DNA of 32,000 nt from Terriglobia bacterium. GTDB taxonomy: Bacteria > Acidobacteriota > Terriglobia > Terriglobales > Acidobacteriaceae. Below are positions 1,949 to 18,634 of this stretch, in pieces (position 1 is the first letter of the stretch; each line of letters opens with the position of its first letter). A program made the translations under genes and the position numbers. Under the pieces are notes generated by a model. The model saw only the letters and a list, made by a program, of their open reading frames with translations, did not search any database and had not been told where the DNA came from. The stretch is taken from positions 1-32,000 of the forward strand of contig JBGQBN010000009.1 in the NCBI GenBank assembly GCA_041494805.1, written 5' to 3'.

Positions 1949-3209
1949 GCAGCAATCTCCCGCAACGCAGACAATAGCCGGTCCACCTCTTCCGCCGTGT
2001 TGTAGTGGGCCAGGCCGATCCGCAAAAAGCCGCCATCTTTCTCCACATCAAGGCGCTCAGTGAGGTTCAGTGCATAATAGTTGCCGTCCCAGGTGAAGAA
2101 GCCGCGCTCACCCAGCTTGGTCGCAAGCTCGAGCGGCGTCTGTCGCGCAATGCGCACCGCGACAGTCGGGCAGCGCTGGTCGAATCGCTTCGGATCGCTG
2201 ATGCCATAGAGCTTCAGCCCACGAACCGCCAACAATCCGCGAATCAAGCGCTCCGCCAGTGCGCGCTCGTGTTGCTGAATGGCGCCATAGGCCGCGAGCA
2301 AGGCCGCTCGTCGAGTAGATACCGTCCCATCCACCCTGCGCCCAAGATCGGCCAAGTAGTCCACGCAGGCGGTGATCCCGGCAATGCACTCGTGGTTGAG
2401 CGTGCCCCACTCCCAGCGGTTGGGAATGGCGTCAGTATTGGCGCGCACCTTGTAAGGATGTAGGAGCTTCAAGTGTTTGCGCTTGCCATAGAGCACGCCA
2501 TGTGCGGCCCAAAAAACTTGTAGGTCGAGCAAACCAGGAAATCGCAATCGAGAGCGCGAACGTCAATCGGGCCGTGGGGCGCGTAGTGAACGGCGTCAAT
2601 ATACGCCATCGCGCCACTCGCATGAGCGAGGCGTACAACTTCTTTCACATCGTTGATCGTGCCCACCGCGTTCGAGGCATAACCAACCGCGACCAGGCTG
2701 GTGTGGCCTGTGATTTTGCGCGCCAGATCGTTCATGTCGAGAGTGCAGTCCTCTTCATTGATCTCCACAAAGCGAACGCTGGCGCCGGTCTCCTCTAGCG
2801 CACGCCACGGTGAAATGTTGGCGTCATGATCGAGGTGCGTGACCACGATTTCGTTGCCTGGACCGAATTCGCGGCCGATGGCGCGGCTGATAGCAAAGGT
2901 CAGCGAGGTCATGTTGGGGCCGAACACGACTTCGTCGGGATCGCAGCCGAGAAAGTCCGCCATAGCGGCACGCGCCGCATCAATCGTGGCATTGGTTTGG
3001 TAGCTGGTGGCGTAAGCTCCATTGGTGTTAGCGTTGGAATTCTTCAGATAATCGCTAACCGCATCAATCACCCTCTGCGGCACTTGAGTCCCGCCTGGAC
3101 CATCGAGGAACACCGCAGGCTGCCGGTTGACAGTCTGCGTGAGGGAGGGGAATTGGGAGCGAACCCAGGCAAGGTCGAGTGTAGTCATTTCCTTTTGCGT
3201 GGTAAGCAT
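1945..3209 (-). pseudogene. Class-V aminotransferase / cysteine desulfurase-like protein, split by a -1 frameshift
   Basis: ORFs 2469..3209 and 1945..2547 are the N- and C-terminal parts of one PLP enzyme. The first ends ..DFLVCSTYKFFGPHMACSMASANT*. The second frame continues ..HGVLYGKRKHLKLLHPYKVRA.., which is the expected continuation FFGPH-x-GVLYGK. One base appears to be missing near 2497-2503, five residues after the putative PLP lysine (YKF). Start is 3209 or 3188. Confidence 0.8.
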
Positions 3210-3257: not shown

Positions 3258-4266
3258 CCGCCACCGCCCGAATGAAATCCGCCAACATGCCGTACGCCGT
3301 GGCCTGCGGCCCAGGATCGTTTTCTACGATCCCCAAACCAGGAAACATATCCGTTTCAAAATACACGACTGAGGACGTTCCCGCGACCCAGGCCAGAGGA
3401 TCGCTCAACGGCACCTGCGCGGGCCGCACGCTGGCAGTAACGCCTCGTTCAGTGCGCCGTGCGCGGCACACCAGCTTGTAAGGCGTGCCGGCAGCGCGAG
3501 CAGCACGCGCCATTTCACCAGTAATGCTGGCAATACCTTCGCGCTCGACGGCATCCAAAGGGATACGCACGCCCATCAATACCGTGACCAAAGCAGCGAC
3601 TTTCACGGCCGCATCCCAGCCTTCGATATCGTGGCTGGGATCGGTTTCAGCGACGCCTATCTGCTGGGCCTGCCGGAGCGAATCATCGAAGCTGAGGCCC
3701 GCCTCCATGCCGCCGAGGATGACATTGGTCGTCGAGTTCAGGATGCCGCGAAACCCGTGCAGTTCGATAGCCGGAAGGTTGTCGCGGAACAAGCAGAAAA
3801 TAGGGACACCGTCCATCACCGTGGATTCGAACAAAAAGCGCCGGCCTTTCGCGGCTGCCAGCGAGTGCAGTTCATCATAAGCGTGGACGATCGGCCCCTT
3901 GTTGGCGGTAATAGCGTGCGCCCCCATTTCAAGCGCCGCGCGGATGTGATCGATCGCCGGCTGTCCGGTCTGAGGAGTAAGCGATGTAGCTTCGAAGAGC
4001 ACGTCCGCGCGCGCTGCGTTTAACCATTCCCGCACTGAGTGTGGCGCGGGCTCCCCCGCCCGCGTCTTGCAATTGTTCCCAGAGACCAAGGCGGCAGAAT
4101 CCAGCCCCTCAGCATCTGCTATCCATCCCAGCCGCCGTGCGGCAACACCGGTAATTCGCCACGCGATACCGCGTTCCTGCAGCTGCCGCTCCTTCTCCTG
4201 TAACAAGCGGACGAGCATCCGATTAACGTTGCCGAAGCCGAGCAGGCAGAGATTATGAGTGCGAAT
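3247..4266 (-). CDS. hom: Homoserine dehydrogenase (no ACT domain); start proposed at ATT 4266
   Basis: The catalytic-domain motifs GILNSTTNVILGGM and AETDPSHDIEGWDAAVKVAALV are present. The Rossmann motif LLGFGNVNR is encoded in frame upstream of the first ATG (4218). See the start-codon finding. The gene call is firm; the start is uncertain. Confidence 0.85.
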   Translation of the reverse strand: MRTHNLCLLGFGNVNRMLVRLLQEKERQLQERGIAWRITGVAARRLGWIADAEGLDSAALVSGNNCKTRAGEPAPHSVREWLNAARADVLFEATSLTPQTGQPAIDHIRAALEMGAHAITANKGPIVHAYDELHSLAAAKGRRFLFESTVMDGVPIFCLFRDNLPAIELHGFRGILNSTTNVILGGMEAGLSFDDSLRQAQQIGVAETDPSHDIEGWDAAVKVAALVTVLMGVRIPLDAVEREGIASITGEMARAARAAGTPYKLVCRARRTERGVTASVRPAQVPLSDPLAWVAGTSSVVYFETDMFPGLGIVENDPGPQATAYGMLADFIRAVAGET

Positions 4267-4348
4267 GTAGGTCTCCTCGAAGTGGGTTCCACAGTAGGTC
4301 TCTGAGCAGGATGCCGAGCACCATGCGGCGGAACGCCGGCGCTCCCGG

Positions 4349-4747
4349 TCATCCCATCATGGTTGTATGTTCGGGCTGGATTTTGTACATGACCCGAACC
4401 TCGCTCGCCTGCCGGTAGGGATACTTATCCACACCCAGGTACTTCTTCGCCATTTTGTCGATGTGGGCATCCGCGCCCTGCTCGGTGATTTCGACGACTC
4501 GGCCGCGGATTTCGAGATAGCGGTAAGGATTCTCCGGGTCCATGATCGCCAGGGCCACGCGTGGATCGCGACGCAGGTTGCGGTCTTTCTGCCGGCCTTT
4601 GGCAGAATTGATGATCACGTAGTCGCCCTCGAGGTCGCACCACACAGGTGTCACCTGCGGACGCCCGTCGGGCATGACCGTGCCAAGGCTGGCAAAAGCA
4701 CGCTTGCTGAACAGATCGCGATACTTGTCGGGGATAGCCTGGGACAT
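4349..4747 (-). CDS. Pyridoxamine 5'-phosphate oxidase family protein (PPOX-class, possibly F420/FMN-dependent)
   Basis: It is 132 aa with a PPOX-fold pattern (FASLGTVMPDGRPQVTPVW, RNLRRDPRVALAI, YLEIRGRV). The SD AGGAGG lies 5 nt upstream of the ATG at 4747. Confidence 0.85.
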   Translation of the reverse strand: MSQAIPDKYRDLFSKRAFASLGTVMPDGRPQVTPVWCDLEGDYVIINSAKGRQKDRNLRRDPRVALAIMDPENPYRYLEIRGRVVEITEQGADAHIDKMAKKYLGVDKYPYRQASEVRVMYKIQPEHTTMMG

Positions 4748-4863
4748 GGATTCCTCCTAAATGCCGAAATGAATGACCAACGGGAAGCAAACCCACATTA
4801 TAGACGTGCGCCACCAGCAGGCGGCAGGCCGATCTGGAATCGCAGCTTCTGTTGCGGCATCCG

Positions 4864-4878
4864 AACATTTAGAATGTT
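4864..4878 (+). promoter_or_regulatory. Palindrome AACATT-TAG-AATGTT overlapping a TAGAAT -10-like hexamer, upstream of the DUF62 gene
   Basis: A perfect 6+6 inverted repeat spans 4864-4878, and TAGAAT sits at 4870-4875. It lies in the 160-nt divergent region between the PPOX (-) and DUF62 (+) genes. No good -35 was seen. Confidence 0.3.
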
Positions 4879-4908
4879 GTACCTTACTGAAGTTCAATAG
4901 ACTTGGTT

Positions 4909-5838
4909 ATGCCTCACACCGGTTCAGGCAGGTGGCACGTGCTGTGGTTCGTCGTGGCCGAGATGTTGCTAGCCCTCCTCGCTGGCATGCCGGCCGCGTC
5001 GCAAGCGCAGGATCCACAACCCAAAGCTCCGCCCACCATCGTCTTCATGACGGACTTCGGCACGGTGGACGACTCGGTCGCCCTTTGCAAGGGTGTAATG
5101 TATTCGGTCGCTCCCGATCTTCGCATCGTGGATCTCACCCATCAGGTCACGCCGTTTTCCATTCTCGACGGCGCACGCTTTCTCTATGGAGCCACTCCCT
5201 ACTATCCCGCTGGAACGGTGTTTGTGGTGGTCGTGGACCCGGGCGTAGGCAGCACGCGCAAGGCGGTGGTGGTGAAGTCCAAGCGGGGACAGTATTTCGT
5301 GCTCCCGGACAATGGGCTTATGACGTTGGTGGAGGATCGCGATGGAATCGAGGGTGTCCACGAGGTTACGAATCGCGACTGGATGATCGGCGCGGCGCTC
5401 TCTTCCACCTTTCACGGGCGTGACATTTTTTCGCCGGTGGGCGCGCATCTGGCGCGCGGCGAAGACTGGACGCAAGTCGGTCCGGAACTCAAGCAACTGG
5501 TACGATTGAAGCTGGCGGCGTCCAAGCTGGACGAGCGCGGGTTGGGCGGCGAAGTGATCGCGACCGATGGTCCCTTTGGCAATCTGGTCACGAATATCAG
5601 CGGGGATGACTTCTTGAAGCTGGGCTACGGTCATGGGCAACACGTGCATGTCGCCATCGGCAAGACGGAAATGAATATTCCATTTGTCCGCACCTTCAGT
5701 GACGTGCAGCTGAAGAAGCCGCTGCTCTACATCGATTCTCGCGGGCACCTGGGATTGGCCGTGAATCAGGGAAGCTTTGCCGCCATCTACGGGATCAAGC
5801 CGCCAGTGGCGATTTTCATTACGCGGGCAGGAAACTAA
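4909..5838 (+). CDS. SAM hydroxide adenosyltransferase / SAM-dependent halogenase family protein (DUF62) with a predicted N-terminal signal peptide
   Basis: Family motifs are IVFMTDFGTVDDSVALCKGVMYSV, VVVDPGVGS, LPDNGL, TFHGRDIFSPVGAHLA, FGNLVTNI and YIDSRGHLGLAVNQGS. The N-terminus MPHTGSGRWHVLWFVVAEMLLALLAGMPAASQA-QD looks Sec-type. The ATG at 4909 is preferred; alternatives are TTG 4903, ATG 4963 and ATG 4987. Confidence 0.85.
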   Translation: MPHTGSGRWHVLWFVVAEMLLALLAGMPAASQAQDPQPKAPPTIVFMTDFGTVDDSVALCKGVMYSVAPDLRIVDLTHQVTPFSILDGARFLYGATPYYPAGTVFVVVVDPGVGSTRKAVVVKSKRGQYFVLPDNGLMTLVEDRDGIEGVHEVTNRDWMIGAALSSTFHGRDIFSPVGAHLARGEDWTQVGPELKQLVRLKLAASKLDERGLGGEVIATDGPFGNLVTNISGDDFLKLGYGHGQHVHVAIGKTEMNIPFVRTFSDVQLKKPLLYIDSRGHLGLAVNQGSFAAIYGIKPPVAIFITRAGN

Positions 5839-5914
5839 AAGGAATCTCGCGCTGAAGCTGGGACATCTGTACTGCATCCCACCCGCGTCAAAGCTTTCAA
5901 CGAGGAGGACCAAC

Positions 5915-8900
5915 ATGAGCAGCCTGCAGCAACTTTCAGCCCGCAGTACCAACGGCCTCAGACGTCTGATTATCGCCGCCATGCTCCTGCTCCTGCCCTG
6001 TCTTGTTGTAGGGCAAAGCTTCCGCGGCTCGATTCGGGGAAAGGTGGTCGACCCGGCCGGCAGCCTGATTGCCCGCGCGAAGGTCACGGCGAAGAGCAGC
6101 GAGACCGGGCTCGTCCGCACAACCGTCACTGGTAGCGACGGCGCTTACGTTCTGGCCGAATTGCCCGCAGGCCTGTACACCGTAATTGCCGAAGCACCCA
6201 GCCTGTCACCAACCGCACAAAATGTTGTCGTCAATGTGGGCCTGGACACCACAGCGGACTTCGACCTGACCAAAGTGGAAAAAAGGCTGGAGCAGATCAC
6301 CGTGACTGGCGCCGCTCCGCTCGTGGAGGCCACGCGTGACGTGCTGGGCGAGGTCGTCGACCAGAGACTGGTAAGCCAACTGCCGCTGAATGGCCGCGAT
6401 TTTGGCAAACTGGTCGCCCTCGTGCCCGGCGCCACGGTTGAGCCTTCGGGAGTGGCCGGAACCCAGTTCGGCTTCGGACAGTTCAATATCAACGGGAACC
6501 GCGACCGCTCCAACAACTACAGCGTGGACGGCACCGACAACAACGATCCGTACTTCAACAACTCCGCGCTCAACCAGGTGGGCATCACCGGCGCGCCCGC
6601 GTCACTGCTGCCCATTGACGCCATCCAGGAATTCAATCTGCAGTCGCAGTTCGGCGCCGAATATGGCCGCAACACCGGCTCGGTGGTAAACATCCTGACC
6701 CGCTCCGGCACCAACCAGTTGCACGGTTCAGCCTTCGGGTTCTTCCGCAACTCCGCTCTGGACGCCCGCAACTTCTTCAATACGGAGGCGCGCAAGACCT
6801 CTTTCCAGAATAGCCAGTTCGGAGGTTCACTCGGCGGACCGATTGTGAAGGACAAGACGTTCTTCTTCGGCGCCTATGAAGGCCAGCGCGAGCGCGTGGG
6901 TTCGGACTTCATCCTGGGCGTGCCAACCCCGGCACAGCGCGCCGCGGCCCGGCAAGTGGCCTTGGCCAATGGCCTGACCGCCATCAACCCGGCATTGGAC
7001 GCAATCCTCGACTTCTACCCGGTCAGCAACACGGGTACGTTTGCCGGCGTCGTGCGGGACAAGAACGACATGGACAGCTTCATCGTCAAGGTGGACCACA
7101 ACTTCACCAATACCGAGCAACTTTCCGGCAGGTATGCTTTTGCCCGCAGTGAGCAGGTATTTCCACTAGGCTCGGCCGGCGGTTTCGGCGATGGCTCGCG
7201 CTTGCCCCAGTTCGCGCAGACTTCACCCGCCCGCGTGCAGGTAGTTTCCTTGAGCCTCCTTTCCAGCCTGAGCTCCACTCGCATCAACGAAGTGCGCTTT
7301 GGATACAGCCGGTATCGCACATCATTCAGTTCGCTGGACGCCAACTTCGATCCCTCGACTCTGGGCATTGATTTTGGCAACGGGAAGCTGGGCCTCCCGG
7401 AGATTGACTTCTCAGTCCCCGAACTGGAGAACCTGGGTGCGCAAGGATTCAGTATTCCACGTGGCCGCACCAGCCAGACCTACCAGATTTTGGATAACTT
7501 CACCTGGCTGCATGGCCGGCACACCATCAAGTTCGGCGGTGAGTATCGCCGTGCCGCCATCGAAAACTTCAATGACAACCTGGAGCGTGGCATTTTTTCC
7601 TTCAGCCCTTCCGGGCTTGATCCGGACCCTGTCGTGGACACTCTCGCCAATTTCTATCTAGGCGGACCAAATTTTGATGCTTTCATCCTCGCCCTCACCG
7701 GCGACACCAACCGCACGACCTACAACAATGGTCTGAGCTTTTTTGTTCAGGATGACATTCGCCTGCGCCCGAACTTCACCCTGAATCTTGGCCTACGCTG
7801 GGAATACTTCGGTCCTGTGAGCGAGAAGAACAATCTGCTTTCGAACCTCGCTTCCGACGGCACCCTCGCTATGGTGGGCACGCATGGTCTGGACGGCATC
7901 TACGAACGCGACCTGAACAACTTCGGCCCACGTGTGGGATTTGCCTGGAACGTGCACCCGAAGACCGTAGTGCGAGGCGCCTACGGCTTGTACTACGACT
8001 ATGTTCCGCAGCATCTGATGCTGGCGAATTTCACACCGTCGGCGGGCGTGGCCACCAACCCGATTGGTCCCCAGCCCGTGTTGCCGCTGTTTTATGACGA
8101 GAACGCGTTCAACGGCTCGGTACCGGGACCTGTTCTCTCGCCCGGCGGACCTCCATTCAACATCTTCGTAACGCCCCGCGATTTCCCCGCGCCCTACGTG
8201 CAGAACTGGAACTTCAACGTACAGCAGGAACTGACACCCGCTGCAGCGTTTGAAGTCGGTTACGTCGGCAGCAAGGGCACCCGCTTGGTGCGTCTATACG
8301 ACCAGAACCAGCCGGACGCCAACTTCAATTTCCCCAATCCCAACTTCGGCAACGTGCACACGCTCGCGCCCATCTCCTCTTCCACATACCACGCTCTGCA
8401 GACCACGTTTAAGCTACAAGGCTGGGGCGGATTCTCCGGTTTCACTTCCTACACCTGGTCGAAGTCGCTGGACGATGCTTCCGATGGCATAGATTTCACT
8501 GCCGGCGCGGCTTTCCCGCAGGACTCAACCAACTTGCAGGCCGAACACGGCGCCTCCACCTTCGACACCCGGCACCGTTTCACGGCTGCAATTAACTATC
8601 GGGTACCCACGTGGGGCGGCGTGCCCAAGCGGCTGGGGGATGGCTGGCAACTCAACTGGATTGTGACTGCGCAGAGCGGACGGCCCATCCCCATTATCAC
8701 GTCTGATGACACCACTGGACGCTTCTATTTCAATCAGCGGCCTAACGTAGTGCCAGGTGTGAATCCCGTGCTGCCAAACTGGAATCCATTCACCGGCTAT
8801 CTGAACCCGGCCGCATTCTCGCAGCCGGCGTTCGGCACATTCGGCGATTTGGGACGCAACTCGATCTACGGCCCCAACTACTGGAATTTTGACTTCTCCG

Positions 8901-9124
8901 TCAGCAAAAGCACGCAGTTGGTGGAGCGGCTGAACTTGCAGTTGCGCGCCGAATTCTTCAATCTCTTCAACCACCCGAATTTCGCTCTGCCCAACGGTAC
9001 GGTTACACCGGGCGTTGGTCCGATTGGCACGATCACCCAGACGCCCGACGTTGCTCAAGGTAATCCCGGTCTCGGCGGCGGCGGTCCACGGGTAATCCAG
9101 GTGGGTGCAAAGTTCACCTTCTGA
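5915..9124 (+). CDS. TonB-dependent outer-membrane receptor with N-terminal carboxypeptidase-regulatory-like domain
   Basis: The signal peptide is MSSLQQ..LLLLPCLVVGQS. The CarbopepD_reg-like segment is GSIRGKVVDPAGSLIARAKVT..TGSDGAYVLAELPAGLYTV. The plug motif is LPLNGRDF..L. The barrel is long and aromatic-rich and ends ..VGAKFTF. The SD GAGGAGG precedes the ATG at 5915; the upstream extension to 5777 overlaps the DUF62 gene. Confidence 0.9.
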   Translation: MSSLQQLSARSTNGLRRLIIAAMLLLLPCLVVGQSFRGSIRGKVVDPAGSLIARAKVTAKSSETGLVRTTVTGSDGAYVLAELPAGLYTVIAEAPSLSPTAQNVVVNVGLDTTADFDLTKVEKRLEQITVTGAAPLVEATRDVLGEVVDQRLVSQLPLNGRDFGKLVALVPGATVEPSGVAGTQFGFGQFNINGNRDRSNNYSVDGTDNNDPYFNNSALNQVGITGAPASLLPIDAIQEFNLQSQFGAEYGRNTGSVVNILTRSGTNQLHGSAFGFFRNSALDARNFFNTEARKTSFQNSQFGGSLGGPIVKDKTFFFGAYEGQRERVGSDFILGVPTPAQRAAARQVALANGLTAINPALDAILDFYPVSNTGTFAGVVRDKNDMDSFIVKVDHNFTNTEQLSGRYAFARSEQVFPLGSAGGFGDGSRLPQFAQTSPARVQVVSLSLLSSLSSTRINEVRFGYSRYRTSFSSLDANFDPSTLGIDFGNGKLGLPEIDFSVPELENLGAQGFSIPRGRTSQTYQILDNFTWLHGRHTIKFGGEYRRAAIENFNDNLERGIFSFSPSGLDPDPVVDTLANFYLGGPNFDAFILALTGDTNRTTYNNGLSFFVQDDIRLRPNFTLNLGLRWEYFGPVSEKNNLLSNLASDGTLAMVGTHGLDGIYERDLNNFGPRVGFAWNVHPKTVVRGAYGLYYDYVPQHLMLANFTPSAGVATNPIGPQPVLPLFYDENAFNGSVPGPVLSPGGPPFNIFVTPRDFPAPYVQNWNFNVQQELTPAAAFEVGYVGSKGTRLVRLYDQNQPDANFNFPNPNFGNVHTLAPISSSTYHALQTTFKLQGWGGFSGFTSYTWSKSLDDASDGIDFTAGAAFPQDSTNLQAEHGASTFDTRHRFTAAINYRVPTWGGVPKRLGDGWQLNWIVTAQSGRPIPIITSDDTTGRFYFNQRPNVVPGVNPVLPNWNPFTGYLNPAAFSQPAFGTFGDLGRNSIYGPNYWNFDFSVSKSTQLVERLNLQLRAEFFNLFNHPNFALPNGTVTPGVGPIGTITQTPDVAQGNPGLGGGGPRVIQVGAKFTF

Positions 9125-9128
9125 TCAG

Positions 9129-9156
9129 ACCGTGTGGAAGCGGGCGACTCGCCCGC
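9129..9156. repeat. ACCGTGTGG box plus GC hairpin between convergent gene ends (possible bidirectional terminator)
   Basis: ACCGTGTGG is at 9129-9137. GCGGGCGA (9140-9147) pairs with TCGCCCGC (9149-9156). It lies between the receptor stop (9124) and the PNP stop (9182). Related copies are at 18635-18664 and 24050-24058. Confidence 0.5.
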
Positions 9157-9181
9157 CCCATCCGAGCGAAGCTCAGCGGCG

Positions 9182-10021
9182 CTAAGTCCCAACATCCGCT
9201 GCAATCCGCGGCAGCACCGCGCCCAGCAGCGCCACAAAATCACCCTTCACTCTCGCGGCGGTCTCCAGCACCTCTTCGTGATTGATGACCTGATCCAGAA
9301 TCCCCGCCGCCATGTTAGTCACGCAGGAAATCGCCAGAACCTTCATTCCCATGTGACGCGCGGCAATCACCTCCGCGACCGTGGACATACCCACCAGATC
9401 AGCCCCAATCGTCCGCAGATACCGGATCTCCGCCGGAGTTTCATAATTCGGCCCCAAGAGCCCCGCATAGACGCCCTGATAAACCGTCTTGCCCAGGCGG
9501 CGTGCTTCCGCAACCGCGATCTCGCGATACGGCTTCCAGTACGCCTGCGTCATATCCGGAAAGCGCGCACCCAAGCGATCATCGTTCGCTCCGACCAAAG
9601 GATTTTGTCCCTGCAAATTGATGTGGTCGGTGAGGACGACCAGCGCCCCTTGCTTGTATTCAAGGTTGATCCCGCCGGCTGCATTGGTATGCACCACAGC
9701 CCGGACGCCCATGCGCCCAAACACGCGCATCGGGAAAGCAACTTCCTGCGCCGAGTACCCTTCATAAAGATGCACCCGTCCCTGCATAGCGGCGATGGGA
9801 ACGCCGTCTGATTTGCCAATCACCATCTGCCCGGCGTGCCCAATCGCTGTGGAGTGTGGGAAGGATGGAATGTCCGCGTAGGGAATCCGCGTAGTTTCAG
9901 CAAGTTCGTCTGCAAAGGCCCCGAGTCCCGAGCCCAGGACAAGTCCAATCCGCGGGCGCAGCGCGGTGCGTGACAGCAGGAACTTCGCCGCAGATTCTGC
10001 AAGAGTGAAATCGTCGATCAT
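9182..10021 (-). CDS. punA: Purine nucleoside phosphorylase (trimeric inosine/guanosine type)
   Basis: Motifs GLVLGSGLG, HSTAIGHAG, GRVHLYEGY, VHTNAAGGIN, GPNYETPAEIR, GADLVGMSTV and SCVTNMAAG are present. The protein is 279 aa. Confidence 0.92.
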   Translation of the reverse strand: MIDDFTLAESAAKFLLSRTALRPRIGLVLGSGLGAFADELAETTRIPYADIPSFPHSTAIGHAGQMVIGKSDGVPIAAMQGRVHLYEGYSAQEVAFPMRVFGRMGVRAVVHTNAAGGINLEYKQGALVVLTDHINLQGQNPLVGANDDRLGARFPDMTQAYWKPYREIAVAEARRLGKTVYQGVYAGLLGPNYETPAEIRYLRTIGADLVGMSTVAEVIAARHMGMKVLAISCVTNMAAGILDQVINHEEVLETAARVKGDFVALLGAVLPRIAADVGT

Positions 10022-10023
10022 TT

Positions 10024-10104
10024 AAGCTCTTAGCTCTTGGCCTTTAGCTCTTAGCTCTCCGGCCAGGGATGAGCTAAGAGCTAAAAGCTAATGGCTAAAA
10101 GCTT
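10024..10104 (-). repeat. Heptamer-array inverted repeat (about 36-bp imperfect hairpin) filling the nupC-punA intercistronic gap
   Basis: The left arm is AGCTCTT-type heptamers and the right arm is GAGCTAA-type heptamers. The core is a perfect 15-bp stem, TTTAGCTCTTAGCTC (10043-10057) with GAGCTAAGAGCTAAA (10071-10085), around a 13-nt loop. Imperfect pairing extends to 10024/10104. Confidence 0.7.
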
Positions 10105-11342
10105 CACAAAAGCATTCCCGCAATCGATGCCGACATCAAATTCGCCATCGTCCCCGCCAGCATCGCACGCACCCCCAACTTGGCCAGTTCGCCCCTCTTG
10201 TTCGGAGCCAGCGAGCCGATACCGCCGATTTCGATACCGATATTTCCCAGGTTGGCGAAACCGCACAGGGCGTAAGTGGCGATGGTGTAGGAACGCGGGT
10301 CCAGTGCCGCCTTCTGTCCTGTAAGCATGGAGAACGCCACGAACTCATTCAACACCATGCGCGTACCCAGCAGGTTGCCGATGGCCGAACAGTCCTTCCA
10401 CGGCACCCCGATCACCCAGGCCACGGGCGAGAACAAAACACCAAAGATTTTCTCAAAGCTGCTGGGAAACCAGTTCCATCCGAAGTGGGCCAGACCGTTA
10501 TGTATCCCGCCCAATAAGCCGTTGGCCAGCGCAATCAACGCCAGAAACGAGATCAGCATAGCCGCGACATTAAGAGTCAAATAGAGTCCGTCGGTCGTGC
10601 CTTTCGCCACCGCCCCCAGCAGGTTCTCGCTCTTATCTTCGCCCATCTCCTCATCGCTCATCTCCACTCGCCCCGCCGTCACCGCGTGCTCCGTCTCCGG
10701 CACGAGCATCTTGGCCACCAGAATCGTCCCCGGCGCGGTCATGATCACCGCCGTCAAAAGATGCTTGGCGTCGATGCCGAAGGCAATGTAGGCAGCCATC
10801 ACCGCACCACTGATGTGTGCCATGCCACTGGTCATGATGGTCATCAGTTCCGAACGCGTCAGTTTGGGCAGAAACGGACGAATGGTCAGCGGTGCCTCGG
10901 TGCATCCCAGGAAAATGCTGGCGGCCACGTTCATGGACTCGGCCCCGCTGGTGCCCATGAACTTCATCATCACCCGCGCCATCTGCCGGATGACCCACTG
11001 CATTACCCCATAGTGATACAGGACGGCGAAAAAGGCAGCCACAAATATGATGGTAGGCAAGACCTGGAAAGCGAGGTAGAACGGTGGGCCTTTTTTTCCT
11101 AGATCCCCAAAAAGAAACGACGAACCCGCGTAGGAGTAGCCGAGAAAGCGAGTGACCACATCACCCAGCCAGGCAAACAGCCGCCGCCCAGCCTCCACCC
11201 GCAAGACCAGAAACGCAAAGACGATCTGTAACCCCAGGCCCCAGGCAACGGTGCGCAACCGAATAGCCCGCCGGTTGGTGGAAAACAGGTAAGCCAGCGC
11301 GACCATGGTCATCAGCCCGAGAATGCCAGTAAGTCGGCTCAA
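10104..11342 (-). CDS. nupC: NupC-family concentrative nucleoside transporter
   Basis: It is a 412-aa polytopic membrane protein with an N-terminal pattern like E. coli NupC (..STNRRAIRLRTV..GLGLQ..FAFLVL). CNT C-terminal motifs are FANLGNIGI..GGIGSLAP. The start is TTG 11342, with GGAGGAG immediately upstream; the spacing is short, so the start is uncertain. Confidence 0.9.
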   Translation of the reverse strand: MSRLTGILGLMTMVALAYLFSTNRRAIRLRTVAWGLGLQIVFAFLVLRVEAGRRLFAWLGDVVTRFLGYSYAGSSFLFGDLGKKGPPFYLAFQVLPTIIFVAAFFAVLYHYGVMQWVIRQMARVMMKFMGTSGAESMNVAASIFLGCTEAPLTIRPFLPKLTRSELMTIMTSGMAHISGAVMAAYIAFGIDAKHLLTAVIMTAPGTILVAKMLVPETEHAVTAGRVEMSDEEMGEDKSENLLGAVAKGTTDGLYLTLNVAAMLISFLALIALANGLLGGIHNGLAHFGWNWFPSSFEKIFGVLFSPVAWVIGVPWKDCSAIGNLLGTRMVLNEFVAFSMLTGQKAALDPRSYTIATYALCGFANLGNIGIEIGGIGSLAPNKRGELAKLGVRAMLAGTMANLMSASIAGMLL

Positions 11343-11408
11343 GCTCCTCCGCAGGTGATTCGCAGGCGCATTCTAGCACCTCGGCCGCAGGCCCACCGGA
11401 ACCACGCT

Positions 11409-11436
11409 GAGAACTGAGAACAGGGAACTAAGAACT
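11409..11436. repeat. Tandem heptamer array GAGAACT-GAGAACA-GGGAACT-AAGAACT
   Basis: Four contiguous 7-nt units lie immediately after the adenosine deaminase stop (11442-11444), in the gap before nupC. A related array is at 14591-14618. Confidence 0.55.
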
Positions 11437-11441
11437 GCGTT

Positions 11442-12974
11442 TCAGAACTTCCGCTCGAAATTCGCAAACGAGCTTTCGAGCTTCCACTGCCCGCGGGCGC
11501 GCTCGTTTGCCTCCAGAAACTTCTCACACCCGGATGAAACCTTGGCCGCGTCGGCACGGTCGCCAGCACACGCCGCCACTGGACGAAATTGCTGCGTCTC
11601 CACCCAAAGGCTGGCGCCAGGCAAGAAACTGTGCTCCAGGCTCTGTCGCGCCATGCGCTTGACCTCGGCATAAGTCAGGCCATAGCTCTCTACGGCTCGC
11701 ACGTACTCATGGGTCATATCGGAACGCGCGACTCCCTCATCGTCCGTCGCCAGCGCCACTGGCACGCCATGAAGCTGGTAAACCGGCAGAGGATGGTCTT
11801 GCCCGCGCACGCCCAGAATCACATCGTTTGAGGTCAGGCAAATCTCCACCAGCACGTTGCGCTGCGCCATCTCCCGCAACAAGCCGAGGGGATCACGCTC
11901 GTCCATTACGGACACGCCATGCCCGATGCGCTCGGCATGCCCTCGCTCAATGGACTCGCGGATATGAAAGCGCAGTCCCTCCGGCGGTACCAATCCCATT
12001 GCCAGTTCGCCCGCATGCAGGCTGATGTGCACTCCCGGATAGACGCCGTGCAGGAAGTCAAGCATCCTCATATGCAGCTCGAAATCATGCATCGGCACGT
12101 ACCAGTCTTCGGGCATGACCAGGTTGAGCCCAACAAACCGCGGATCGGACTTTGCCAGTTCGAAGCCGGCCAGGATCTGTGCAAACACCTGCTCTCGTGG
12201 CAACCCGCGCAGCACCTGGTACAGAAAGCGGACCGTGACGCCGCAGCCGGGATCAGCTTCCGCCGAACCGCACTTGAGCGCGGAACGCATCTTCGCTTCG
12301 TCGTCATCGAGCTGCTTGCCAGTCGCCGCGATCACATCCTTCAAACCGCCCGAGAGAAGCTTGTCGCGCATCCGGCCAAAATCGTCGTCCCAACCTAGCT
12401 TTGCCCCTAGTCGTGCGGACTGCATGCCATCCGCCGTGTGCATGAGTTCAAGGTATTGCACATGATCGGCAGCCGCCCGCGCCGCGGCCTCCGCCATGGA
12501 CTCGCCCATATGGTTCAGCATCGCGGCTAGAAACTTGTCGAAGGTGGCAAAGAAGTGGTCGTGGCCAGATTCCTCCCCGCGGTTCCAGTTGCGCATGGAC
12601 CAGGCGTCGATCATGGAGTTGTAGAGAACCTGATCCTGATACGCGCAAGCCACCCACGGCTTGCTGGTATACCTTTCACAGGAAACATCGCATGGCGGAG
12701 TCAGCAGGAAAGAGGTCGTCCGGTCAACACACAAACCGCTGCCGGCGGCGAAGTCGATGAGGCTCTCCGCATAAATCGCGCCCTCCAGGTGGTTGTGCAG
12801 GTCGCCGCCCTTGGGCATGTCCCGCAAGAATGCCAGCAGAAGCAGAGGCTGCCGCCGAATCGAGTCGAAATAACGGGCCGTGCGCTGCTGTGGATCGGTA
12901 GCGGCTTGCGCTGCGGCAACCGACCCACTTACCGCTACGACAACAACAATAAGCAGACCAGCCGCTCGGCTCAC
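11442..12974 (-). CDS. Secreted adenosine deaminase, ADGF/ADA2-like long form
   Basis: It is about 510 aa. The signal peptide is ..LLIVVVVAVSGSVAAAQA-AT. Metal and catalytic motifs are GGDLHNHLEGA, HISLHAGE, GHG, and LATDDEGVARSD. The GTG at 12974 lies 5 nt after the SD AAGGAGG; the TTG at 12977 is an alternative. Confidence 0.88.
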   Translation of the reverse strand: MSRAAGLLIVVVVAVSGSVAAAQAATDPQQRTARYFDSIRRQPLLLLAFLRDMPKGGDLHNHLEGAIYAESLIDFAAGSGLCVDRTTSFLLTPPCDVSCERYTSKPWVACAYQDQVLYNSMIDAWSMRNWNRGEESGHDHFFATFDKFLAAMLNHMGESMAEAAARAAADHVQYLELMHTADGMQSARLGAKLGWDDDFGRMRDKLLSGGLKDVIAATGKQLDDDEAKMRSALKCGSAEADPGCGVTVRFLYQVLRGLPREQVFAQILAGFELAKSDPRFVGLNLVMPEDWYVPMHDFELHMRMLDFLHGVYPGVHISLHAGELAMGLVPPEGLRFHIRESIERGHAERIGHGVSVMDERDPLGLLREMAQRNVLVEICLTSNDVILGVRGQDHPLPVYQLHGVPVALATDDEGVARSDMTHEYVRAVESYGLTYAEVKRMARQSLEHSFLPGASLWVETQQFRPVAACAGDRADAAKVSSGCEKFLEANERARGQWKLESSFANFERKF

Positions 12975-13058
12975 CAAACCCTCCTTGAATTCCTGAAGAC
13001 CGGCATTTTACCTGTTCGGCAGAAATAAAGTAGCAGAACCCAGCTTGCTGATCGCGAA

Positions 13059-13082
13059 AGATCGACCGCGAGAGATCGACCG
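13059..13082. promoter_or_regulatory. Direct repeat AGATCGACCG-N4-AGATCGACCG upstream of the deaminase operon
   Basis: Identical 10-mers sit at 13059-13068 and 13073-13082, with a third GATCG at 13050-13054. They lie about 85-105 nt upstream of the deaminase start. Function is unknown. Confidence 0.25.
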
Positions 13083-13349
13083 TGGCCAGCGTGGAGAACC
13101 GCCGAGGCCCAGCTCTAGAAAGACCACAAAAGTCCCTCCCCACGCGGTTTTCGCGAGATTTTCACAGTTTGAGGGTGGGAGATTTTTCTAGCGACTGCCG
13201 CAGGGGCGCTAACGGAATCCGCAAAAAACGCCATCCGCTGCCGATCAATCGGCAACCCTTTTCGGCAAATTGCACCACTTTCAGTTCACCTGGCTGTGGA
13301 CCGGCTGCACTTGATTGATTTTACGACGGATAGAGTTCTGTGTTTCGTA

Positions 13350-13383
13350 TTGACTCTAAAAATGGAAGGAGTAAGAAAATAAT
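13350..13383 (+). promoter_or_regulatory. Candidate sigma70-like promoter for the ncRNA candidate
   Basis: TTGACT is at 13350-13355. After 16 nt comes TAAGAA (13372-13377), or after 19 nt GAAAAT (13375-13380). This sits in the only strongly AT-rich patch of the region. Confidence 0.3.
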
Positions 13384-13384
13384 C

Positions 13385-13705
13385 GTTCTTTGACAGCTTC
13401 TGAAGTTTTCCCGGTTGGTGCGGCGTCCGGGGCTCAAGCGAAGTCACCTGCAGACCGCAAGGTCATGCAGGGAAGGCGAGCAAGGGTCTATAGCAAAGCG
13501 CTGGTCGAGGCGAACAAGAAGATATGTTGAAGGCAACATAGGATCCCGAGGCGTTAAGCTGGTTTATCCGGTTGGCGGTAAGCCCGGAGCCCGAGCAACG
13601 ATCGCGCGTTGCGACCCGCAAGGGAAGCGACGAAGGCAGGTCGGCAAGGGTCTAAAGCGAGCTACTGGCCGAGACGAATGAGCTTAACACCACCTCGGGA
13701 TTCTT
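13385..13705 (+). ncRNA. Candidate structured ncRNA with two homologous modules of about 110 nt (family not recognised)
   Basis: Module 1 is about 13410-13520 and module 2 about 13567-13680. They share CCGGTTGG..CCGG(G/A)GC.C.AGC..[GCAA-capped hairpin]..GAAGGC..GCAAGGGTCTA(T/A)AGC..CTGG.CGAG.CGAA. Stems differ by compensatory changes. A 19-bp outer helix (13541-13560 with 13681-13703) encloses module 2. G.U pairs and the GNRA loops fit the + strand only. Boundaries are approximate. Confidence 0.45.
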
Positions 13706-13832
13706 ATTTGTGACGCGCGCAATCCAACCCCGCTGAGCGGCCAGGCCTCAGCGCTCCCCTGCCTCCGAGTAATTCGGGCTCTATCGGGGATGGGATGCGC
13801 GCTTCCCCATCCGCTACGTCTGGGCCTAACCC

Positions 13833-14528
13833 TCACGGTCCTTGCTGCACCCGCAGTTTCTCTCCCGTCACCAGCCGTGCTCGATAGATGGTGTTGGTCG
13901 CGGCTACCTCGGCCACAACGTCAACATTCACTTCGTAAGCGCCCCGCGGCAGGTTCTCTCCGAACGGAATCTCGAGATCAATAGTGTTCTTCTTCAGAGC
14001 AAAGTGCTGATACCCAACCGCCGTAGCTCGTCCCTTCTCGCTCACCGCCAGCACGATCACCGTCAGGTCGAAATCCTGTCCCGTCTGGTTGGAAACTTTG
14101 ACCGCACCCTCCACCCTTTTTCCCGCTACCTTGGGATCTCGGCTCCACGCAACCAGCAGTGGCGCCACCACCTGCAGATCGAGTTCCTGGTTCTGCTGCT
14201 GGGCAGGCTTGCCGCTATCGGTCACCGTCACCACAAAGTGAAACGATCCAGCTTCGCTGGGAATCCCAGCCAGCAAGCCGTCTTCACTCAGTGCGATACC
14301 CCGCGGTAACGAACCTCCAGTGAATTGCCATTTCAAAGGACTGATTCCGCCCTGAGCCTCCAATTGGAAGCGATACTCTTGCCGCAGATACCCCTTGGGC
14401 AAGGACGTCGTCCGCACTGAGAGTGGCCCGCCCATCGCGGCGCCCTGCTGCGCCGGGGAGCTGAGGGAAGCCGCCAGCACGCACCACATAATGGCAAGGG
14501 TTGCGCGGCCGGCCACGTGCTTTGACAT
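13833..14528 (-). CDS. Exported protein with putative cadherin-like Ig domain
   Basis: The signal peptide is MSKHVAGRATLAIMWCVLAASLSSPAQQ. The 'putative Ig domain' pattern is YRFQLEAQGGISPLKWQFTGGSLPRGIALSEDGLLAGIPSEAGSFHFVVTVTD. The ATG at 14528 is preferred over the extension to 14570. Confidence 0.7.
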   Translation of the reverse strand: MSKHVAGRATLAIMWCVLAASLSSPAQQGAAMGGPLSVRTTSLPKGYLRQEYRFQLEAQGGISPLKWQFTGGSLPRGIALSEDGLLAGIPSEAGSFHFVVTVTDSGKPAQQQNQELDLQVVAPLLVAWSRDPKVAGKRVEGAVKVSNQTGQDFDLTVIVLAVSEKGRATAVGYQHFALKKNTIDLEIPFGENLPRGAYEVNVDVVAEVAATNTIYRARLVTGEKLRVQQGP

Positions 14529-14590
14529 GATCCCCATCGCGTGCGCTCTAGAGCCAAAGCTACAGCACAAGGTTGCCTACTCCAAAAACT

Positions 14591-14618
14591 GAGAACCGGG
14601 AACTGACCACCGGAAACT
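14591..14618. repeat. Heptamer array GAGAACC-GGGAACT-GACCACC-GGAAACT
   Basis: It shows 7-nt periodicity related to the array at 11409-11436. It lies in the gap between the iminopeptidase stop (14680) and the Ig-protein start (14528). Confidence 0.4.
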
Positions 14619-14679
14619 GGTTTTCTCCCGATCCCGCCTCTCACGTTCAGTGCACGTGCATTGCGACCAAACTCTGTAC

Positions 14680-15666
14680 TTATCTTCCCAAAAAGTCATC
14701 GACCGCTTTAACGAACATGTCAGGCTGATCCACAAACGTCATGTGCCCCGCCTTGGGGAAGATCACCAGCCTCGATCCCGCAATCTTCTCGTGCATCACC
14801 TGCGACATCGCCGGATCGGACTCGTCGTGATCGCCCACCAGCACAAGGGTTGGCACCTTAATCGTCGCCAACTGGTCCGTGTACTCCACCGATTTCAGGT
14901 TCCCGTCAATGATGAACTCGCCATGGGATCCCCACATTTCCCGGTAGAGGTCCCATGCCGTGTTGCCATTGGCGACGGGGTCATAATTAGGATCGGGACG
15001 ATTTTGGTACAGATACGGAAAATAACCTTCACCCCAGGCCGCAATCATGTATTCGTTCGTGTAACGATGCTGCTCGTATTCCTTGCCGTGGCCATAGAGG
15101 CCTGCTGCTTCCATCTTGCTGATTCGGTCGCGGAGCTCAGCTGGCATCTTCTCTTTCATGTGCACGAAGACTTCATTGATCGCCTTGGTGCTGGAAAACG
15201 TGCTGCCTAGAATCAGGTGTGAAAGATTGCGCTGATACTTGAACGCATACGCCTGTGCCAAGCAGCCTCCGTAGGAATGCCCCAGCAGGCTGATCTTGCC
15301 CAGCCCCAGCGCCTGCCGCACCGCCTCAACGTCTTCCACCATATTCTCGACGGTGTAGCCGGAGGCATCCTCCAGCTTCTGTGAGCGTCCCGAGCCACGC
15401 TCATCAATGAAGATCAATTCATTGTGCCGCGCCAAAGGCAGCAGGTAGGGCAGGAAGTAGTCATGCGACGCCCCCGGCCCACCATGCACAATCATGAGGG
15501 GTTCGCCGCGCCCAAGAATCTTGTAGTAGATCATCACACCATGGGCGTCCACGAATCCCTCTTGCATGGGATAGAGGTTTGGAGAATTTGCGGATGGTCC
15601 CGCGCCCTGGGCCAACGTGATTGCAGACATCAGGAAGAGAAGAAAGAGGGTTAGTGGAGTCTTCAT
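14680..15666 (-). CDS. Exported alpha/beta hydrolase, proline iminopeptidase (prolyl aminopeptidase) family
   Basis: Motifs are HGGPGASHDYF, IFIDERGSGRS and the nucleophile elbow LLGHSYGG, with a C-terminal ..GHMTFVDQP. The signal peptide is MKTPLTLFLLFLMSAITLAQG. The start could be 15666, 15675 or TTG 15702. Confidence 0.85.
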   Translation of the reverse strand: MKTPLTLFLLFLMSAITLAQGAGPSANSPNLYPMQEGFVDAHGVMIYYKILGRGEPLMIVHGGPGASHDYFLPYLLPLARHNELIFIDERGSGRSQKLEDASGYTVENMVEDVEAVRQALGLGKISLLGHSYGGCLAQAYAFKYQRNLSHLILGSTFSSTKAINEVFVHMKEKMPAELRDRISKMEAAGLYGHGKEYEQHRYTNEYMIAAWGEGYFPYLYQNRPDPNYDPVANGNTAWDLYREMWGSHGEFIIDGNLKSVEYTDQLATIKVPTLVLVGDHDESDPAMSQVMHEKIAGSRLVIFPKAGHMTFVDQPDMFVKAVDDFLGR

Positions 15667-15733
15667 GGCCCCCATGCTAACCGCTTTGAAGGACGAAGAC
15701 AAAACTCTGATGAAAAGTGATCCGCGGGCTGCC

Positions 15734-17296
15734 TTAGCCTACCTGCCAAACCGTATCCAGCACTGTCCCGTCCACCCACTTCACCACCGCGACCGGCCGG
15801 TCCCCAAGCTTCGGCCGCGCCGGCTTCCCGCCGCAAATCCGCTCCACTTCGGACTTGATGTCCTGGAGCGGCCGGATGGGCAGCTTCGAACCCTTCACCG
15901 CATCCAGCAAATCCTGACGCCGCGGATTGACCGCAATCCCACGCTCCGTCACCACCACATCAATCAGCTCGCCCGGCCCGGTCAACGTCGTCACTTCATC
16001 CACGATCACCGGAATGCGGTCGCGGAACGACGGCACCGCCAGAATCGTGCATCCCGCCGCCAGACAGTTCTGCCACCCGCCAATCCCGTGCAACAGCCGC
16101 CCATCGGAATGCGTCACCACATTGCCATTGAAGTTCACATCCACTTCAGTCGCGCCCAATACCACCGCATCCACCATCGAAGCGAACGAACCTTTGCCGT
16201 GAAAGTTGTACGAAGTGAACGGAGACGTGGGCACGTGTCGCGGATCGCTGGCAATGGATTTCACGGCGTCGAGATCGAACGTCTGTCCGTCGAGAATGTA
16301 ATCGGTCAATCCTTCCTGCAGCATCTCCACCAGATACCGCGTGGATCCGCCGCGCACGAAACGCGCTTTCACGCCATCTTCTTTCATCATGCGTCGCAAA
16401 TAATCGACGAACGCCAGCGCAATCCCGCCTGCCCCTGCCTGGAAGGAAAATCCGTTGCGCATGATCCCCGCCTCGCGCAGGAACCGCGCCACAAACTCCG
16501 CAATCCGCAATCGATCGGGCGAGCGTGTGATCTGGGTTGTCCCCGAAACAATCTTCGTCGGATCGCCGATCGACTCCACCTCAACCACAAAGTCCACATT
16601 GTTGCCCTGGATTTGCCAGGGAAGACAAGGGAACGGCACCAGGCTGTCGGTGACCACGATTACCTGGTCGGCGTACATGGAATCCGCCAGCGCAAACCCC
16701 AGCGATCCGCAAGCCGACTTGCCATGCGACCCATCGGCGTTGCCGAAAGAGTCGGCTGTCGGCGCAGCGATCACCGCGATGTCAACGTGCACCTCGCCAT
16801 CCTGTATGGCCTGCCAACGCCCTCCGTGCGAGCGCAGCACGCCCATGCCCCGCATCTTGCCCTGGGTGCAGTAGTCGCCCAGCGGCCCATTCATCGAGCC
16901 TTCAATGTGATGAATGACCCCCGACTGCATCAGCTCAATCGCACTTTTCTGCGAGGGAAATGAAGCGCTGGGAAACCACAGCAAATCTTTGACGCCGATT
17001 TTTGCCGCCGCCTCAAGCGCCATCAAAGCAACGCGGTCGCCGTCCCGCAGGTGATGATGATTAGAGATCACCATGCCATCGCGCAGCCCACACCTGCTCA
17101 AGGCAGTTTCGAGATCCGTCACGCGCTTGTCGCCGTTCTCCGGATAATCCTTATTCGAGCGAACCGGCGGCGCAGTCTTGCGCGCCCGCGGCTGGTACTT
17201 GGCCACACCCAGATAAGGAATCTGCGGCTTGCCATTGACCATGGCCGGCACCATCCGCCCCGCCGCATTCTGTGCCACTTCCACTCTCTCGCTCAT
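15734..17296 (-). CDS. citF: Citrate lyase alpha subunit (citrate CoA-transferase)
   Basis: It is 520 aa, with the CitF pattern ISNHHHLRDGD, HHIEGSMNGP, LRSHGGR, DIAVIAAPTADSFGNA, GSLGFA and FSFQAGAGGIALA. The SD GGGAG precedes the ATG at 17296. Confidence 0.92.
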   Translation of the reverse strand: MSERVEVAQNAAGRMVPAMVNGKPQIPYLGVAKYQPRARKTAPPVRSNKDYPENGDKRVTDLETALSRCGLRDGMVISNHHHLRDGDRVALMALEAAAKIGVKDLLWFPSASFPSQKSAIELMQSGVIHHIEGSMNGPLGDYCTQGKMRGMGVLRSHGGRWQAIQDGEVHVDIAVIAAPTADSFGNADGSHGKSACGSLGFALADSMYADQVIVVTDSLVPFPCLPWQIQGNNVDFVVEVESIGDPTKIVSGTTQITRSPDRLRIAEFVARFLREAGIMRNGFSFQAGAGGIALAFVDYLRRMMKEDGVKARFVRGGSTRYLVEMLQEGLTDYILDGQTFDLDAVKSIASDPRHVPTSPFTSYNFHGKGSFASMVDAVVLGATEVDVNFNGNVVTHSDGRLLHGIGGWQNCLAAGCTILAVPSFRDRIPVIVDEVTTLTGPGELIDVVVTERGIAVNPRRQDLLDAVKGSKLPIRPLQDIKSEVERICGGKPARPKLGDRPVAVVKWVDGTVLDTVWQVG

Positions 17297-17323
17297 TCCA
17301 CTCCCTTTGGCTCAAGTTCCATT

Positions 17324-17358
17324 GTCATCCTGAGCGGGCTTCCAGCCCGCGAAGGACC
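17324..17358. repeat. GC hairpin element GTCATCCTGAGCGGGCTTCCAGCCCGCGAAGGACC in the citDE-citF gap
   Basis: GCGGGCT (17334-17340) pairs with AGCCCGC (17344-17350) around the loop TCC. The flanks GTCATCCTGAGC/GAAGGACC resemble a repeat class I recall seeing in soil-bacterial intergenic regions (memory only). A second CTTCCAG-centred hairpin is at 27989-28009. Confidence 0.45.
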
Positions 17359-17406
17359 TATGCACCTGTCTGGCCCACCGAGGCGACGCATCCTTCTTAT
17401 CGGCAG

Positions 17407-18618: not shown

Positions 18619-18634
18619 AGTGGACCGTGTTGAG

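Follow-up and report, generated by a model that had tools for sequence, protein, structure and literature searches.

We analysed a 32,000-nucleotide stretch of contig JBGQBN010000009.1 (hereafter the window) from a Terriglobales (Acidobacteriota) bacterium; the nearest relatives of the window are metagenome-assembled genomes (MAGs) from the same order. The locus of interest is built around a gene for a DUF62 enzyme, a family known biochemically as S-adenosylmethionine (SAM) hydrolases and disputed in its physiological role. The copy described here is very probably exported from the cytoplasm, and it lies beside genes for an outer-membrane receptor and for the salvage of purine nucleosides.

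Gene content of the locus

Five adjacent genes occupy two convergent units (Table 1). An initial annotation of this DNA had read them as one pathway leading from outside the cell to the cytoplasm, and all five are present at the places it gave, with rpiA nearby as it had also reported. The gap between the ends of the two units is 57 nt rather than the 58 nt given there. Signal-peptide-like N-termini are found on the three proteins that it had proposed as exported, namely the DUF62 enzyme, the receptor and the deaminase.

Table 1 Features of the DUF62 locus and their positions in the window
Feature	Position	Strand	Evidence
rpiA	1220-1948
Predicted exported DUF62 / SAM hydroxide adenosyltransferase-type enzyme, 309 aa; catalytic domain from residue 44	4909-5838	+	SAM_HAT_N and SAM_HAT_C, AlphaFold2 (AF2) model, invariant triad
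Predicted Sec signal peptide of DUF62, residues 1-33, MPHTGSGRWHVLWFVVAEMLLALLAGMPAASQA, cleavage before QD; encloses Met 4987	4909-5007	+
TonB-dependent-receptor-like outer-membrane protein	5915-9124	+	Pfam CarboxypepD_reg and OMP_b-brl_4
Small GC hairpin between the convergent units; possible bidirectional terminator (weak evidence)	9140-9156	.	Folding
Cytoplasmic purine nucleoside phosphorylase (PNP), inosine/guanosine type	9182-10021	-	NF006054, TIGR01700
Strong heptad-repeat hairpin in the nupC-PNP spacer	10022-10103	-	RNA folding
NupC/CNT-family nucleoside importer	10104-11342	-	Pfam Nucleos_tra2_N, Gate, Nucleos_tra2_C
Predicted exported adenosine-deaminase-family amidohydrolase, about 510 aa	11442-12977	-	PF00962

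The receptor gene begins on the same strand 76 nt after the DUF62 stop codon, the gap initially reported, and is preceded by a Shine-Dalgarno ribosome-binding site, GAGGAGGA, 5 nt upstream. Its product carries a signal peptide and matches CarboxypepD_reg and OMP_b-brl_4 (E = 1e-202); Pfam did not report a Plug domain in this protein. On the opposite strand, 99 nt separate the deaminase gene from nupC and 82 nt separate nupC from the PNP gene. The PNP, which lacks a signal peptide, passes the equivalog cut-offs of both NF006054 (purine-nucleoside phosphorylase; 362.5 against 218) and TIGR01700 (inosine/guanosine-specific; 325.3 against 293.35), and its reading as a cytoplasmic inosine/guanosine-type enzyme stands. 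NupC is a probable nucleoside importer: the three CNT domains of Pfam match well above threshold, and its TIGR00804 score of 435.6 falls just under the cut-off of 442.

The deaminase matches PF00962 (E = 8.6e-31), and its DLHNH, HAGE and TDDEG motifs (HxH, HAGE and TDD) align to those of the adenosine deaminase (ADA) structure 6n9m and are invariant in 42 homologues. A signal-peptide-like N-terminus, as initially suggested for the window protein, is shared by 115 of 120 homologues, and eight invariant cysteines fit disulfides formed in an oxidising compartment. The protein had been assigned to the ADA2/ADGF type, and this label is not supported: the protein reaches 34 bits with TIGR01431, for which the cut-off is 315, no A_deaminase_N domain (PF08451) was detected, and no ADA2 chain occurs among 29 PDB matches. 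It resembles the secreted ADA2/ADGF deaminases in being a predicted exported member of the ADA superfamily of approximately 510 residues, in its conserved cysteines and in an insertion that follows the HxH motif, and differs from them in failing their family model. The structure model (pLDDT 60.6) is too poor for a subtype, and a fold search did not separate ADA1-like from ADGF-like targets. We therefore assign it only as a predicted exported ADA-family enzyme, the substrate of which we infer. Together, the deaminase, NupC and PNP genes read as a coherent same-strand unit for adenosine salvage.

Probable export and catalytic residues of the DUF62 enzyme

Export of the DUF62 enzyme is, in our judgement, very probable and has the strongest support of all our results, on the basis of a conservation pattern and a hydrophobicity heuristic together with a structure model and comparison with solved structures. 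In all 16 solved homologues, including Thermotoga 2zbu, SalL, the fluorinases, PH0463 and MJ1651, the proteins' own residues 2-15 align to residue 39-44 of the query, so that the first approximately 43 residues of the window protein are extra to the fold; cytoplasmic relatives likewise start 2-8 residues ahead of the TDFG strand. The AF2 model (mean pLDDT 90.9) places residues 7-26 in a lone helix, followed by a linker and by the domain from residue 43. The extension consists of MPHTGSGRW, HVLWFVVAEMLLALLAGMPA and ASQA, followed by QD, which corresponds to a basic n-region, a hydrophobic core and an AXA-type cleavage site, and the alternative start codon Met 4987 falls within the hydrophobic core.

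This architecture is maintained in relatives under free variation of the sequence itself. All 120 closest database homologues (75-90% identical) carry an n/h/c extension of the same design with freely varying residues, ahead of a mature start that is nearly invariant (...KAPPT(V/I)VFMTDFG). At the species level, 79 loci keep the reading frame ahead of FMTDFG open over 32 codons or more. Mean peak 10-residue hydrophobicity in this frame is 2.99; the other two frames, mostly interrupted by stops, reach 0.95 and 1.05. Of the 79 loci, 74 have an AXA-like site. The Sec signal peptide that the initial annotation had noted as apparent is thus borne out by an extension lying outside the solved fold, modelled as a lone helix and kept throughout both samples. 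Being cleavable, it would direct the enzyme to act in the periplasm rather than the cytoplasm. Export of the window protein through the Tat pathway was rejected, as it has no twin-arginine motif. Some proteobacterial-type exported homologues do carry RRxxLS in the n-region (P0345, P0350 and P0380 (locus L170, 8001-8924)), and this group may use Tat rather than Sec.

Judged from comparison and structure, the catalytic machinery is intact. Both domains of the family architecture are matched above gathering scores, SAM_HAT_N (PF01887) with E = 3.3e-52 and SAM_HAT_C (PF20257) with E = 1.2e-21, and in Foldseek comparisons the model superimposes on 2zbu with a target-normalised TM score of 0.95 and a root-mean-square deviation of 1.5 Å, and on PH0463 with TM scores of 0.88-0.89. 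In PH0463 the triad that activates water is D68-R75-H127 (PMC4859513). The corresponding residues of the window protein, D110-R117-H169, are spaced identically, 7 and 52 residues apart. An alignment of 36 exported homologues drawn from several lineages shows no variation in them, nor in the aspartate of TDFG, the PDNG motif (PDNGL in the window protein) or the asparagine of FGN.

The same features set the enzyme in relation to the characterised members of the family. With the cytoplasmic DUF62 hydrolases (PH0463, MJ1651, Salinispora StDUF62 and the archaeal (R)-SAM hydrolases) it shares the two-domain fold (target-normalised TM 0.88-0.95), the equally spaced D-R-H triad, PDNG and FGN, and the predicted chemistry is the one expected of these enzymes, in which SAM and water yield adenosine and methionine. 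Unlike them, it has a conserved, predicted cleavable signal peptide (lipoprotein signals in some relatives), adjoins a TonB-type receptor and purine salvage genes, and would serve in scavenging rather than in the intracellular removal of (R)-SAM. The halogenases (fluorinase FlA and chlorinase SalL) also have the fold in common (target-normalised TM 0.84-0.94) and likewise carry out nucleophilic attack at C5' of SAM, but they have halide-binding residues, T80/S158 in FDAS and Y70/G131 in SalL (PMC4859513), where the window protein has the hydrolase triad. Its motifs resemble those of the hydrolase 2zbu (VVDYGVG..R, FHGRD) and not those of SalL (YPETG, WYGKD). A reading as a SAM-dependent fluorinase or chlorinase was rejected on the presence of the triad and on a TIGR04507 score (151) far below the cut-off (400). 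With the NCBIfam (R)-SAM hydrolase equivalogs NF058624 and NF053629, the protein reaches 190 bits (cut-off 350) and 145 bits (cut-off 470), respectively. Given hydrolase-like motifs and scores well below the cut-offs for both fluorinases and (R)-SAM hydrolases, we regard the protein as a divergent hydrolase-type member of the family.

Predicted export extends well beyond this locus. We surveyed the 150 best representatives at 50% identity, 106 of which are near full-length and were classed by a signal heuristic: 34 have signal peptides, 20 lipoprotein-like signals, 7 other extensions and 45 are of cytoplasmic type. The initial annotation had proposed such a count, and by this heuristic 54 of 106 carry a signal peptide or lipoprotein signal. 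The exported forms group together in a neighbour-joining tree, and a profile built on distant exported members retrieved 120 proteins, 118 with extensions, including some from Hydrogenedentota and Proteobacteria MAGs. Exported DUF62 proteins thus form, as far as sequence classification goes, a deep and widespread group. Six signal-peptide proteins (P0162, P0170, P0165, P0173, P0224 and P0190) are fused at the C terminus to extracytoplasmic domains. The fusion partners, which comprise the protease inhibitor Emfourin, the Ig-like N_BRCA1_IG, the D-Ala-D-Ala dipeptidase Peptidase_M15 and the P1 head of SecDF (SecDF_P1_head), indicate that the family acts extracytoplasmically. A literature search found no account of an exported or periplasmic DUF62 enzyme or SAM hydrolase, nor of TonB-linked SAM uptake, although silence there is not proof.

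Gene neighbourhoods of predicted exported DUF62 enzymes

The company of the DUF62 gene was followed through 63 Terriglobales loci with at least 8.5 kb of sequence downstream of it. It is followed by a convergent PNP gene in 57 of the 63, the usual gap being 40-120 nt where no receptor intervenes, and the PNP gene is followed by ADA in 41. The orthologous TonB-type receptor is present in 23 loci and NupC in 3, and the complete five-gene set occurs only in the window and in one relative among the 63 (L034). Conserved co-localisation, which the initial annotation had anticipated for the genes it named, therefore extends to DUF62 with PNP and often ADA across Terriglobales, and fails for the full set, which is rare. 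We take the conserved core, judged from these gene orders, to be an exported DUF62 gene beside PNP-ADA, with the receptor and NupC as optional additions. The receptor occurs in patches over the DUF62 tree, a pattern that fits an old linkage followed by repeated losses.

Neighbouring genes were located through coordinates anchored by tblastn, and 140 bundled neighbour open reading frames (ORFs) were scanned against Pfam. Outside Terriglobales, two Proteobacteria MAGs encode a classical TonB receptor with Plug and barrel directly upstream of DUF62 and in the same orientation, separated from it by 5 nt in one and 33 nt in the other. A gene of the PF06516 (NUP) family adjoins the exported DUF62 gene in four loci. 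In one of these (L085), DUF62 stands back-to-back with this 'purine nucleoside permease' family gene, and the neighbours include urate oxidase, Xan_ur_permease, OHCU decarboxylase and an M20 amidohydrolase. The other three contain a trio in which NUP is divergent from DUF62 and a beta-aspartyl peptidase (Asparaginase_2) follows (L116 5137-8812, L122 about 6866-10021 and L124 6865-10020); all three proteins of the trio carry signal peptides. A weak match of the trio's NUP protein to futalosine hydrolase suggests that its fold is nucleosidase-like and not that of a permease. Clusters for purine catabolism accompany exported DUF62 genes in two loci. At L168, a Xan_ur_permease gene begins 67 nt after DUF62 and is followed by genes for a CDA-fold deaminase, allantoinase (above its cut-off), xanthine dehydrogenase and OHCU decarboxylase.

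A more distant DUF62 protein, only 39% identical, is encoded between a TonB receptor and Xan_ur_permease at L129. A single receptor-DUF62 operon was rejected for this locus, where an SDR gene on the opposite strand intervenes. Just upstream of this DUF62 gene, at 7221-7832 (+), lies an ORF with PVILDTDICDDIDDTWALL; its sole Pfam match, below threshold (E = 0.057), covers positions 1-29 of the profile for inosine-uridine nucleoside hydrolase, and the ORF may be a gene remnant. Besides purine genes, peptidase adjacency is a second recurring theme of the exported loci: genes for an M42 peptidase (L169 8868-10031) and for an S9 prolyl oligopeptidase (L170 8921-11074) begin within a few bases of the DUF62 stop codon.

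Purine genes or a receptor were found near none of 18 DUF62 loci of cytoplasmic type. The contrast with the exported loci is suggestive, not significant, and the count is partly circular because some of the search exemplars came from exported loci. The expectation that DUF62 genes with signal peptides would sit next to TonB receptors or purine genes is therefore borne out in part: such partners recur in separate lineages, and outside Terriglobales purine linkage is confined to a minority of the exported loci (6/34).

The intergenic regions of the locus contain two hairpins. Around the first, GCGGGCG-ACT-CGCCCGC (9140-9156), the initial annotation had placed the ends of both units. The hairpin exists, but it is without a T-run, the 66-nt intergenic stretch containing it (9120-9185) folds at -27 kcal/mol and is not unusual against shuffles (z = -1.6), and a consensus terminator scan missed it; promoter and terminator scans of the locus found nothing over the shuffled expectation. 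The second fills the nupC-PNP spacer with heptad repeats (GCTAAGA / TTAGCTN) and has a folding energy of -50.9 kcal/mol (z = -7.8). Similar spacer hairpins occur in two further nupC-bearing relatives (L030 7936-8030 and L040 11792-11886; z = -4.5 and -5.5), and the heptad motif is found directly upstream of PNP in two loci without nupC (L019 11697-11722 and L091 6004-6015). Rfam gave no family match for the spacer hairpin of the window, only sub-threshold look-alikes of miRNA precursors.

Beyond the deaminase gene, at 13833-15702 (-), lie genes for an Ig-like He_PIG protein and an alpha/beta hydrolase (S33 aminopeptidase-like), both with signal-peptide-like N-termini and both syntenic in many relatives. 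A further same-strand run, at 15734-23449 (-), comprises five genes, for the citrate lyase alpha subunit (CitF), an ACP-CitE-like fusion (HpcH_HpaI preceded by an MdcD-type ACP at the N terminus), an isocitrate/isopropylmalate dehydrogenase, an aconitase-family protein and a PrpD/MmgE protein; this run looks like an organic-acid pathway with no relation to the DUF62 locus. On the other side, the gene for a class V aminotransferase (1945-3209, -) is broken into two ORFs, 1945-2547 and 2469-3209, which overlap and differ in frame. Both parts lie in a single frame in the relative L001, and the window therefore has a frameshift, either a pseudogene or an assembly error.

A candidate scavenging pathway and its alternatives

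Taken together, these genes could supply a route from an external adenosyl compound to cytoplasmic purine. An adenosyl-sulfonium compound from outside would reach the periplasm, in the genome of the window perhaps via the TonB-type receptor encoded next to DUF62; the simplest candidates are SAM and its inactive (R)-epimer, set free by dead cells. The exported DUF62 enzyme would direct water to C5' and release adenosine and methionine; the exported ADA-family enzyme would convert adenosine to inosine; NupC would import the nucleoside; and the cytoplasmic PNP would cleave it to hypoxanthine and ribose-1-phosphate. We consider this full sequence of steps a credible proposal with slightly less than an even chance of being right. 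It is the pathway of the initial annotation in reduced form, retaining the export of DUF62 and of the deaminase and the same-strand salvage unit, and giving up the five-gene set as a conserved entity, the ADA2/ADGF label and the shared hairpin.

The logic is like that of periplasmic scavenging in Gram-negative bacteria (UshA/CpdB-type hydrolases, NupC/NupG and DeoD/PNP), in which extracytoplasmic release is followed by CNT import across the inner membrane and by a cytoplasmic phosphorylase. It would differ in that the releasing enzyme is a SAM hydrolase acting on a sulfonium nucleoside and not a phosphoesterase, and in that a periplasmic deaminase is added ahead of uptake. Nutrient loci linked to TonB receptors, such as polysaccharide utilisation loci, combine a receptor with a periplasmic processing enzyme and a transporter of the inner membrane. 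They also place a receptor gene beside the gene for an exported enzyme, a pairing that recurs for DUF62 in Proteobacteria. In contrast to those loci, the one described here has neither a SusD-like partner nor a regulator, and its receptor is absent from most relatives.

A number of observations weigh against the pathway. The receptor is missing from 40 of the 63 Terriglobales relatives and NupC from 60; the DUF62 and salvage genes are convergent and not co-transcribed. Outside Terriglobales, by a crude count, only 6 of 34 exported loci are linked to purine genes and 3 have an adjacent receptor, and other exported DUF62 genes have peptidases (M42, S9), TPR proteins, thiolases or nothing telling as neighbours. 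No SAM or purine riboswitch was found with Rfam in the window (4200-13900, E ≤ 1) or in eight related loci (at gathering score). At the level of the enzymes, DUF62 falls below the (R)-SAM hydrolase equivalog cut-off (190 against 350), and, as regards the deaminase, ADGF-type structures include AMP deaminases. Characterised DUF62 enzymes are also slow, and hence ill-suited to nutrient harvesting.

The main alternative is a gene order inherited without functional coupling. DUF62 would then have some other periplasmic role, for example as a general scavenging hydrolase, ADA-(NupC)-PNP would be an ordinary, independent adenosine-salvage operon, and the receptor would be one of the many generic acidobacterial proteins of TonB type. 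An unrelated upstream gene, PPOX, is equally conserved (66/73), and rpiA, the class V aminotransferase and homoserine dehydrogenase travel along in the Terriglobales neighbourhood and are as syntenic as PNP and ADA. Synteny within the order therefore says little about function, and adjacency may merely reflect relatedness. The convergent arrangement, the dispensability of the receptor and NupC, the 28 of 34 exported loci outside Terriglobales without purine genes nearby and the peptidases that are often immediate neighbours are all in keeping with this explanation. Yet the DUF62/PNP(/ADA) block is kept where upstream synteny is broken (L033, L050, L052 and L075) and in more distant relatives (L084 and L167), a persistence that is somewhat more telling than general synteny. 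Separate lineages place DUF62 beside purine-handling partners that are not homologous to one another (PNP/ADA; NUP; Xan_ur_permease with xanthine dehydrogenase and allantoinase), the pairing of DUF62 with a receptor arose at least two times with differing receptor types and gene orders, and neighbours of this kind are absent from the 18 cytoplasmic-type loci, albeit as a weak and partly circular control. On balance, we hold inherited order without coupling to be a serious but doubtful explanation.

It is improbable, in our view, that the exported enzyme instead has another substrate than SAM or serves a non-nutritional purpose, with any adenosine formed being taken care of by neighbouring salvage genes. 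Removal of 5'-halo-deoxyadenosine, cleavage of another C5'-adenosylated compound brought in through a TonB receptor, or inactivation of a competitor's nucleoside-type metabolite would be examples. The ligands carried by TonB receptors are usually scarce or bulky, fusion to Emfourin or Peptidase_M15 is unlike purine metabolism, and a distant exported group has QSSG or ESLG in place of the conserved DSRG, a hint that the leaving group is recognised differently. On the other hand, the window protein and the relatives close to it keep all the motifs of the SAM-bound structures (TDFG, the DD pair, the triad, PDNG, FGN and DSRG), the triad is of hydrolase and not halide-binding type, in line with the low TIGR04507 score (151 against 400), and no biosynthetic or resistance genes lie near the locus.

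That the signal peptide is an annotation artefact, with translation starting at Met 4987 or later to give an ordinary cytoplasmic (R)-SAM hydrolase, is highly improbable: ATG 4909 does lack a preceding Shine-Dalgarno sequence and an in-frame ATG is available at 4987, but most homologues have no Met at the equivalent position, the AXA-terminated hydrophobic extension stays in frame in the 79 loci despite free sequence variation, cytoplasmic relatives begin only 2-8 residues before the TDFG strand, and, in the wider family, some members carry a lipobox variant and some are fused to periplasmic domains.

The enzyme family, the salvage genes and the type of receptor at this locus are all already known; the compartment and the recurrent gene company are new. 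A recent paper explicitly doubted that removal of (R)-SAM is the physiological role of all DUF62 enzymes, and a large exported branch near outer-membrane receptors and genes for purine uptake and catabolism shifts the question of DUF62 function to another compartment. Current gene callers and family models label the exported proteins like their cytoplasmic relatives, hiding the difference. In its broadest form, which we advance tentatively and as a rather unlikely conjunction of claims, the exported branch would be a widespread and previously unrecognised group of extracytoplasmic SAM hydrolases through which bacteria obtain adenosine and methionine from SAM, or its inactive epimer, present in the environment; in some lineages TonB-dependent uptake would come first. 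If this were true, the branch would provide the first SAM-cleaving enzyme of the periplasm and, for a sulfonium nucleoside, the first route linked to TonB, and part of a family whose function is still debated would acquire a clear physiological role. SAM from dead cells would then be a recognised soil nutrient, and TonB-dependent receptors would gain a new class of ligand.

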